Shown: piece by piece, positions 1 to 3,027 of the stretch
How positions within the stretch are numbered: the first letter of the stretch is position 1
Layout: each line of letters starts with the position of its first letter
NCBI RefSeq assembly: GCF_003334785.1
Contig: NZ_QOWV01000053.1
Strand: one strand, 5' to 3'
Length of the DNA: 3,027 nucleotides
Source of the DNA: Escherichia coli
Lineage (GTDB): Bacteria > Pseudomonadota > Gammaproteobacteria > Enterobacterales > Enterobacteriaceae
The notes under the pieces: generated by a model
What the model was told of the DNA's origin: nothing
Databases searched by the model: none
Seen by the model: the letters and a program-made list of their open reading frames with translations, nothing else
Made by a program: the position numbers and the translations under genes

Positions 1-11
1 GCCGCCAGGCA
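1..11 (-). rRNA. rrf: 5S rRNA gene, 5' end only (first 11 nt; the rest lies beyond the window start)
   Basis: Reverse complement of 1..11 is TGCCTGGCGGC, the canonical 5' end of enterobacterial 5S rRNA, sitting 92 nt downstream (in rRNA sense) of the 23S 3' end as expected for an rrn operon. Only 11 nt are visible, so the call rests on context. Confidence 0.75.
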
Positions 12-103
12 AATTCTGTTTTATCAGACCGCTTCTGCGTTCTGATTTAATCTGTATCAGGCTGAAAATCTTCTCTCATCCGCCAAAACAGCTTCGGCGT
101 TGT
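12..103 (-). other. 23S-5S internal transcribed spacer (about 92 nt) of an rrn operon; contains the 3' half of the 23S processing stem
   Basis: Lies between the 23S 3' end (window 104) and the 5S 5' end (window 11). In rRNA sense it reads ACAACGCCGAAGCTGTTTTGGCGGATGAGAGAAGATTTTCAGCCTGATACAGATTAAATCAGAACGCAGAAGCGGTCTGATAAAACAGAATT, which matches the E. coli rrnB-type 23S-5S spacer as I recall it. Confidence 0.85.
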
Positions 104-340
104 AAGGTTAAGCCTCACGGTTCATTAGTACCGGTTAGCTCAACGCATCGCTGCGCTTACACACCCGGCCTATCAACGTCGTCGTCTTCAACGTTCCTTC
201 AGGACCCTTAAAGGGTCAGGGAGAACTCATCTCGGGGCAAGTTTCGTGCTTAGATGCTTTCAGCACTTATCTCTTCCGCATTTAGCTACCGGGCAGTGCC
301 ATTGGCATGACAACCCGAACACCAGTGATGCGTCCACTCC

Positions 341-355
341 GGTCCTCTCGTACTA
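341..355 (-). other. Sarcin-ricin loop of 23S rRNA (E. coli 2653-2667), the elongation-factor binding site
   Basis: Window 341..355 is ggtcctctcgtacta, reverse complement UAGUACGAGAGGACC, the universally conserved motif. A2660 (ricin depurination site) maps to window 348 and G2661 to window 347 (the bond cleaved by alpha-sarcin lies between them). Confidence 0.9.
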
Positions 356-440
356 GGAGCAGCCCCCCTCAGTTCTCCAGCGCCCACGGCAGATAGGGAC
401 CGAACTGTCTCACGACGTTCTAAACCCAGCTCGCGTACCA

Positions 441-474
<34 letters not shown>

Positions 475-475
475 A

Positions 476-518
<43 letters not shown>

Positions 519-547
519 ACCGCCGTCGATATGAACTCTTGGGCGGT

Positions 548-603
<56 letters not shown>

Positions 604-940
604 AGAACCACCGGATCACTATGACCTGCTTTCGCACCTGCTCGCGCCGTCACGCTCGCAGTCAAGCTGGCTTATGCCATTGCACTAACCTCCTGATGTC
701 CGACCAGGATTAGCCAACCTTCGTGCTCCTCCGTTACTCTTTAGGAGGAGACCGCCCCAGTCAAACTACCCACCAGACACTGTCCGCAACCCGGATTACG
801 GGTCAACGTTAGAACATCAAACATTAAAGGGTGGTATTTCAAGGTCGGCTCCATGCAGACTGGCGTCCACACTTCAAAGCCTCCCACCTATCCTACACAT
901 CAAGGCTCAATGTTCAGTGTCAAGCTATAGTAAAGGTTCA

Positions 941-956
941 CGGGGTCTTTCCGTCT
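941..956 (-). other. Macrolide/lincosamide/streptogramin B binding segment of domain V (G2057, A2058, A2059, A2062 region)
   Basis: Window 945..956 is gtctttccgtct, reverse complement AGACGGAAAGAC. A2058 maps to window 950 and A2059 to window 949; both are the wild-type base. Confidence 0.85.
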
Positions 957-1025
957 TGCCGCGGGTACACTGCATCTTCACAGCGAGTTCAATTTCACTG
1001 AGTCTCGGGTGGAGACAGCCTGGCC

Positions 1026-1123
<98 letters not shown>

Positions 1124-1899
1124 CAAGAGCTTCGCTTGCGCTAACCCCATCAATTAACCTTCCGGCACCGGGCAGGCGTCACACCGTATACGTCCACTTT
1201 CGTGTTTGCACAGTGCTGTGTTTTTAATAAACAGTTGCAGCCAGCTGGTATCTTCGACTGATTTCAGCTCCATCCGCGAGGGACTTCACCTACATATCAG
1301 CGTGCCTTCTCCCGAAGTTACGGCACCATTTTGCCTAGTTCCTTCACCCGAGTTCTCTCAAGCGCCTTGGTATTCTCTACCTGACCACCTGTGTCGGTTT
1401 GGGGTACGATTTGATGTTACCTGATGCTTAGAGGCTTTTCCTGGAAGCAGGGCATTTGTTGCTTCAGCACCGTAGTGCCTCGTCATCACGCCTCAGCCTT
1501 GATTTTCCGGATTTGCCTGGAAAACCAGCCTACACGCTTAAACCGGGACAACCGTCGCCCGGCCAACATAGCCTTCTCCGTCCCCCCTTCGCAGTAACAC
1601 CAAGTACAGGAATATTAACCTGTTTCCCATCGACTACGCCTTTCGGCCTCGCCTTAGGGGTCGACTCACCCTGCCCCGATTAACGTTGGACAGGAACCCT
1701 TGGTCTTCCGGCGAGCGGGCTTTTCACCCGCTTTATCGTTACTTATGTCAGCATTCGCACTTCTGATACCTCCAGCATGCCTCACAGCACACCTTCGCAG
1801 GCTTACAGAACGCTCCCCTACCCAACAACGCATCAGCGTCGCTGCCGCAGCTTCGGTGCATGGTTTAGCCCCGTTACATCTTCCGCGCAGGCCGACTCG

Positions 1900-1957
<58 letters not shown>

Positions 1958-2000
1958 TGTCTGGGCCTTCCCACATCGTTTCCCACTTAACCATGACTTT

Positions 2001-2033
<33 letters not shown>

Positions 2034-3007
2034 CTTCACGACGGACGTTAGCACCCGCCGTGTGTCTCCCGTGATAACATTCTCCGGTATTCGCAGTTTG
2101 CATCGGGTTGGTAAGTCGGGATGACCCCCTTGCCGAAACAGTGCTCTACCCCCGGAGATGAATTCACGAGGCGCTACCTAAATAGCTTTCGGGGAGAACC
2201 AGCTATCTCCCGGTTTGATTGGCCTTTCACCCCCAGCCACAAGTCATCCGCTAATTTTTCAACATTAGTCGGTTCGGTCCTCCAGTTAGTGTTACCCAAC
2301 CTTCAACCTGCCCATGGCTAGATCACCGGGTTTCGGGTCTATACCCTGCAACTTAACGCCCAGTTAAGACTCGGTTTCCCTTCGGCTCCCCTATTCGGTT
2401 AACCTTGCTACAGAATATAAGTCGCTGACCCATTATACAAAAGGTACGCAGTCACACGCCTAAGCGTGCTCCCACTGCTTGTACGTACACGGTTTCAGGT
2501 TCTTTTTCACTCCCCTCGCCGGGGTTCTTTTCGCCTTTCCCTCACGGTACTGGTTCACTATCGGTCAGTCAGGAGTATTTAGCCTTGGAGGATGGTCCCC
2601 CCATATTCAGACAGGATACCACGTGTCCCGCCCTACTCATCGAGCTCACAGCATGTGCATTTTTGTGTACGGGGCTGTCACCCTGTATCGCGCGCCTTTC
2701 CAGACGCTTCCACTAACACACACACTGATTCAGGCTCTGGGCTGCTCCCCGTTCGCTCGCCGCTACTGGGGGAATCTCGGTTGATTTCTTTTCCTCGGGG
2801 TACTTAGATGTTTCAGTTCCCCCGGTTCGCCTCATTAACCTATGGATTCAGTTAATGATAGTGTGTCGAAACACACTGGGTTTCCCCATTCGGAAATCGC
2901 CGGTTATAACGGTTCATATCACCTTACCGACGCTTATCGCAGATTAGCACGTCCTTCATCGCCTCTGACTGCCAGGGCATCCACCGTGTACGCTTAGTCG
3001 CTTAACC

Positions 3008-3027
3008 TCACAACCCGAAGATGTTTC
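3008..3027 (-). other. 3' end of the 16S-23S spacer / 23S leader; 5' half of the RNase III processing stem
   Basis: Reverse complement is GAAACATCTTCGGGTTGTGA, which immediately precedes mature 23S in E. coli rrn operons and is complementary to the trailer at window 92..103. Confidence 0.8.

Follow-up and report, generated by a model that had tools for sequence, protein, structure and literature searches.

Positions 1..103 of the window, by which we mean the whole stretch of 3,027 nt that was analysed, can with very high confidence be assigned to the 23S–5S region of a chromosomal rrn operon of Escherichia coli (or of the Shigella group), a region with elements of pre-rRNA processing that, in its rrnB copy, has also been cloned into vectors from spacer +12 onwards. 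The 23S–5S spacer is a textbook element, and both its carriage by vectors and its processing elements are already known; the significance of the result is practical, not scientific. Because a cloned rrnB cassette sits in pTrc/pBAD-type vectors, the segment is at the same time a genomic repeat of about 7 copies and a frequent match to vectors and contaminants.

Layout of the window

The features on which the assignment is based are as follows, in the order of the RNA.

3008..3027, minus strand: final 20 nt of the 16S–23S spacer, directly upstream of the 23S in the RNA sense
3000..3027, minus strand: 5' strand of the 23S processing stem, in which the final 20 nt of the 16S–23S spacer are joined to 23S nt 1-8 (cofold and alignment fold)
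104..3007, minus strand: complete 23S rRNA gene, 2904 nt (Rfam RF02541, 2876.7 bits, model positions 1-2925 of 2925)
85..113, minus strand: 3' strand of the 23S processing stem, consisting of the final 10 nt of the 23S and spacer +1..+19 (cofold, 27 pairs)
12..103, minus strand: 23S–5S spacer, 92 nt, bounded by the Rfam 23S 3' end and the 5S start
1..92, minus strand: vector-identical stretch from spacer +12 to 5S nt 11 (matched by the plasmids pAK51 and pMQ at 100%)
60..84, minus strand: weak stem-loop I of the 9S leader (GGCGGAUGAGAGAAGAUUUUCAGCC; MFE -5.7 kcal/mol)
24..45, minus strand: stem-loop II of the 9S leader (UCAGAACGCAGAAGCGGUCUGA; MFE -11.1 kcal/mol, z about -5.8)
10..19, minus strand: RNase E "site a" motif ACAGAAUUUG, the motif being read directly and the cleavage taken from the literature
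1..11, minus strand: initial 11 nt of the 5S rRNA (UGCCUGGCGGC), placed from a locus of 100% identity

The first-pass annotation had taken all of 1..103 as the 23S–5S spacer; this holds for 12..103, but 1..11 are the 5' end of the 5S. The spacer is thereby flanked by the 23S 3' end and the 5S 5' end on the same strand, and 23S annotation was present in all genomes matching the window. The 5S start was read from the rrnG locus of strain LR-64-2 (locus L004), whose sequence runs on past the window end and in which the 5S is both annotated by PGAP and detected as Rfam RF00001 (92.8 bits), starting at window 11. When Rfam was searched at a permissive E-value, no family was assigned to the spacer, the matches on this locus being the 5S, the end of the 23S and a sub-threshold RNAI match, and a scan for promoters and terminators over window 1..400 on both strands gave no site. 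The RNAI match (L004 10137-10177; 22.8 bits against a gathering score of 47) falls on the rrnG terminator hairpin 3' of the 5S, outside the window, and is almost certainly a chance resemblance between hairpins.

Copies of the window in E. coli genomes

The first-pass annotation had described the region as part of a multi-copy rrn operon, more probably of genomic than of vector origin and not assignable to a particular operon, and these three claims were borne out by the complete genomes. Every complete E. coli genome in RefSeq (5426/5426) matched, with a median of 7 places per genome, and seven rrn copies each were located in LR-64-2 and MG1655. The whole window was matched at 100% in three of the 5426 genomes, and many others were one base off. 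Since all 3027 nt equal chromosomal copies in these three finished genomes, the window is genomic and not of vector origin. The exact copy is rrnG in LR-64-2 (flanks clpB ... kgtP), rrnD in EC17CM13 (flanks yrdA ... thrV-rrf-yhdZ) and rrnB in 23CRST021 (flanks murI ... murB); since each of the three perfect copies belongs to a different operon, the window does not reveal which copy it represents.

The nearest copies in MG1655 are rrnB and rrnG, which are tied with 2 mismatches each (window 1834 and 1285), and these two substitutions relative to the K-12 rrlB and rrlG genes indicate that the source is a non-K-12 strain. Both mismatches fall in the 23S; within 1..103, the spacer and 5S start of K-12 rrnB, rrnG and rrnD show zero differences from the window, including the same 92 nt, whereas rrnH, rrnC, rrnA and rrnE carry 1-2 changes, at window 91, 79 and 22. 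The spacer type of the window is thus that of 3/7 operons in MG1655 and of 5/7 in LR-64-2, in each of which 1..103 is identical; over the full length, only rrnG of LR-64-2 equals the window, and the other six copies differ at 3-6 positions.

We weighed two narrower readings against these comparisons. That the window represents rrnB in particular, the operon that gave the vector cassette, is a possible but rather doubtful reading: its spacer is identical to that of MG1655 rrnB, no K-12 copy comes closer than rrlB with its 2 mismatches, and one of the exact-match genomes carries the sequence in rrnB, but MG1655 rrnG is equally near, the spacer is common to rrnD as well, the other exact matches are in rrnG and rrnD, and the rrnB copy of LR-64-2 differs from the window at 4 positions. 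We consider it unlikely that the window is a collapsed or mosaic consensus of several rrn copies instead of one physical copy. Seven near-identical copies per genome, which differ within a genome at only 3-6 of 3027 positions, are commonly collapsed by short-read assemblers; however, three finished genomes each contain this 3027-nt haplotype unchanged in one of their copies, the majority of the seven LR-64-2 copies differs from the window at 1797, where a consensus would carry T, and the variable blocks of the window are all of one type, that of MG1655 rrlB/rrlG, with no mosaic pattern seen.

Some variable positions of the 23S may be recorded here in their own right. Window 1834 (23S nt 1174), located in a hairpin loop, is G, a base seen in none of the seven MG1655 copies, which show T or a deletion there. 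Positions 1273-1285 (23S 1723-1735) and 206-214 (23S 2794-2802) of the window are hairpin tips for which alternative versions exist among the rrl copies of one genome; because these versions preserve the same local fold, the blocks represent compensatory swaps.

Processing elements of the spacer

As a chromosomal 23S–5S spacer, the segment would be transcribed within the 30S pre-rRNA, and its first ~19 nt would pair with the sequence just upstream of the 23S to form a long stem. Cofolding of the 5' and 3' flanks of the 23S, with the window sequence only, gave -46.1 kcal/mol and 27 pairs, and these 27 pairs were conserved, nearly without variation, in a MAFFT alignment of 12 sequences (the window, four distinct K-12 variants and seven other Enterobacterales). 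According to the work of Ghora and Apirion (1978), Cormack and Mackie (1992) and Li, Pandit and Deutscher (1999), taken together, the RNase III cut reportedly lies at about +7 to +9. An RNase III processing stem brackets the 23S in most bacteria (PMC6582327), and the stem in the window corresponds to it. Judging from the pairing and the literature, RNase III would cut this stem and release pre-23S and 9S RNA. The standard template for 9S RNA in vitro starts inside the window sequence, its primer GAAGCTGTTTTGGCGGATGAG beginning at spacer +9, i.e. at window 95 (PMC2948425), and the 5' end of the 9S RNA can be put at about this position.

The sole polymorphic position of the stem is window 91 (spacer +13), which is C, A or G among the rrn copies. 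It faces U(-14): the C allele is mismatched there, the A allele can form A-U and the G allele G·U, and in Serratia the position is occupied by a C-G pair.

What remains of the spacer would form the ~84-nt leader of the 9S RNA, in which stem-loop I is weak and stem-loop II conserved. For stem-loop I, the alifold consensus retains six outer pairs (alignment columns 69-74 with 91-97) and the changes are mostly one-sided; it is less well supported than stem-loop II. In stem-loop II, compensatory changes maintain the structure from genus to genus. In the seven other Enterobacterales of the alignment (Salmonella, two species of Klebsiella, Kosakonia, two Citrobacter and Serratia), a hairpin of 9-12 bp with a different sequence ends 1-4 nt before ACAGAAUU, and each of the six basal pairs is represented by 2-4 different pair types. 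These counts were obtained from folds of the individual sequences registered at the stem base, RNAalifold having counted several pairs as "broken" on the MAFFT alignment, which is not structure-aware. The motif and the 5S start that follows it (ACAGAAUU|UGCC) are invariant in 12/12 aligned sequences.

The arrangement of a putative site a can be read directly in the window: ACAGAAUUUG stands at 10..19, with the expected cut position 3 nt before the mature 5S, and is preceded by the hairpin at 24..45. After stem-loop II, a single-stranded ACAGA|AUUUG would be exposed, and RNase E would cut it 3 nt before the mature 5S to give p5S. The three works of 1978, 1992 and 1999 named above reportedly also give the position of this cut, A|AUU, three nt before the 5S. 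The passages of PMC8522691 and PMC10939160 that cite these works (Ghora & Apirion 1978; Cormack & Mackie 1992) state that RNase E cleaves site a, and stem-loop II is the minimal structure that RNase E requires for this cut (PMC8522691). Inactivation of RNase E leads to an accumulation of the 23S–5S spacer (PMC3082872, Table 1). The covariation of hairpin II across genera agrees with both PMC8522691 and PMC3082872 on processing by RNase E.

The 9S leader of K-12, the classical substrate of RNase E, has the same processing-stem strand, stem-loops and ACAGAAUUUG site as the window. The spacers of Salmonella, Klebsiella, Citrobacter, Kosakonia and Serratia share this architecture, with a near-invariant stem strand, the hairpin and ACAGAAUU|UGCC, and the 23S–5S spacers of the Enterobacterales compared have lengths of 88-100 nt. 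They diverge from the window in the middle of the spacer and in the hairpin sequence, and identity over a 150-nt query (the last 47 nt of the 23S, the spacer and the 5S start) is 77-93%.

Small-RNA and sponge roles have been reported for some other spacers and trailers of rRNA and tRNA operons. It is very improbable, in our view, that the ~81-nt spacer fragment from the RNase III cut at about +9 to site a, which carries the conserved stem-loop II, is more than a by-product of processing and acts as a small RNA or sponges RNase E or other RNA-binding proteins. In array data the spacer accumulates only with RNase E inactivated (PMC3082872), which argues for its rapid turnover.

Relation to the vector cassette

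The same spacer that serves pre-rRNA processing in the chromosome is found in cloning vectors. Vector identity was examined by a search of PLSDB plasmids, which also returned chromosomal-type rrn matches. In three small or otherwise odd plasmids the match has its start exactly at query base 12, at GCTGTTTTGG, namely pAK51 (NC_009716.1), pMQ (NZ_OP009360.1) and a record of S. maltophilia (NZ_CP090424.1). They carry a block of 426 bp that corresponds to MG1655 rrnB 4171556..4171981 (the spacer from +12, 5S, T1 and T2), with 100% identity in pAK51 and pMQ and 99.1% in the S. maltophilia record, and that opens with GCTGTTTTGGCGG straight after a polylinker/HindIII remnant. In pAK51, which has bla TEM and rop, a pUC-style polylinker ...GGATCCTCTAGAGTCGACCTGCAGGCATGCAAGCTTG abuts GCTGTTTTGGCGG; the junction is the same in pMQ and the S. 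maltophilia record, with the HindIII site degraded. The match of pAK51 and pMQ to the window begins right after ...GCATGCAAGCTTG. Window and vector are identical over 1..92; from window 93 on, the vector sequence is polylinker. An exact identity of 92 nt is far beyond chance.

The vector pKK223-3, which the first-pass annotation had named along with pTrc and pBAD-type plasmids, we take to belong to the lineage of the pTrc99/pBAD-type rrnB cassette vectors. For pTrc99C, pBAD and pBAD18, published primers bear the vector junction aagcttGGCTGTTTTGGCGGATGAGAGAAG: "pTrc-Bcl-Rp ggctgttttggcggatgagaga" (PMC2853124), "GGCTGTTTTGGCGGATGAGAG, amplify pBAD vector" (PMC7388967) and "F-pBAD18-gib aagcttggctgttttggcggatgagagaag" (PMC11895373). 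The string that the first-pass annotation had named as a vector segment does match pTrc/pBAD-type vectors; its extent, given as about 1..80, needs correction, because its 84 nt are exactly the reverse complement of 1..84, and the identity with the vectors reaches slightly beyond it, to 92. The description of the segment as rrnB-derived is right for the whole cassette, whose T1/T2 tail makes it specific to rrnB (of the seven K-12 operons, rrnB alone has the 426-bp block in full and at 100% identity), but not for the overlapping 92 nt, which are not specific to rrnB.

In pTrc- and pBAD-type vectors, rrnB DNA from spacer +12 onwards, cloned together with the 5S and the terminators T1 and T2, lies downstream of the polylinker. 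The first 92 nt of the 426 bp of this 5S–T1–T2 cassette equal window 1..92, and its 5S/T1/T2 part falls beyond the window end. On the other side the two differ: the cassette starts at spacer +12 behind the HindIII/polylinker, where the window has spacer +1..+11, and it has neither spacer +1..+11 nor the 23S nor the 5' strand of the stem for RNase III, all of which the window contains. The vector hallmark AAGCTTG|GCTGTTTTGG is absent from the window, which reads ACAACGCCGAA|GCTGTTTTGG and then continues into the 23S. The argument of the first-pass annotation from contiguity with a full 23S gene, which vectors lack, is sound: the window passes the vector junction into a complete 23S (Rfam RF02541), and the vector-type plasmids examined have polylinker and no 23S beside the cassette. 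We can therefore dismiss the reading that 1..92 came from a pTrc/pBAD-type plasmid, as a vector-derived segment or as part of a vector/chromosome chimera, despite the 92-nt exact match and the fact that rrnB cassettes do occur in unrelated assemblies, because the identity ends at window 92 and is followed by 11 nt and a 2.9-kb 23S of chromosomal sequence where the vector-type plasmids examined have polylinker, because the 92/93 junction is the same as in thousands of E. coli chromosomes, and because chromosomal copies agree with the window at 100% over its full length. For the sequence visible here, we regard the chromosomal E. coli/Shigella type as settled.

Contaminants and misfiled records

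The region had also been called contamination-prone, and two records testify to this: a contig in a Nocardioides assembly and the vector-type copy in the Stenotrophomonas "plasmid". Apart from two mismatches, the contig (NZ_JADCSA010000880.1, positions 1-249, Nocardioides malaquae Y6) equals the spacer–5S–T1 stretch of E. coli rrnB; it is 249 bp long, has 0.68x coverage and is clearly contaminant DNA. It was the sole match when a 56-mer of the spacer, present in all seven MG1655 operons, was scanned through representative genomes, among which no Escherichia or Shigella record was matched. Because a 56-mer of all seven MG1655 operons found no Escherichia there, negative results from this collection are untrustworthy here, and the 56-mer scan carries no evidence on taxonomic range; an exact scan of the 92-mer through 100k representative genomes gave 0 matches, in a collection that is likewise uninformative on absence or taxonomic range. 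A scan of a viral contig collection gave 0 matches.

Several other records deserve comments of their own. The S. maltophilia record (NZ_CP090424.1, strain GYH plasmid unnamed4), which is 42 kb long and unannotated, contains at 4995-6595 the rrnB cassette with ~1.6 kb of backbone shared with pAK51, and probably represents either an engineered construct or contamination of the assembly. Two records filed as UNVERIFIED_ORG "Escherichia phage" (OR845186.1 and OR845267.1; 2.5 and 6.7 kb) contain host 23S–5S sequence and are host DNA in phage preparations, not phage genomes. The PLSDB "plasmids" NZ_OL790696.1 (4.80 Mb), CP125156.1 (5.37 Mb) and NZ_CP141089.1 (4.94 Mb) are whole chromosomes with 7-8 rrn copies, and many other rrn-bearing "plasmids" have chromosomal flanks (mobB, kgtP, murB) and look like chromosome fragments.

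Use in screening of assemblies

In assemblies of E. coli and Shigella, a perfect vector match of 92 nt occurs at every rrn operon with this spacer type, and vector screens can therefore flag genuine chromosomal sequence. The segment is unusable for placing a contig in a particular rrn operon. Chromosome and vector can be told apart by the 11 nt preceding GCTGTTTTGG, which read ...CCTTACAACGCCGAA in the chromosome versus polylinker/AAGCTTG in the vector. When the same string is found in a non-enterobacterial assembly, it is a reliable marker of contamination.
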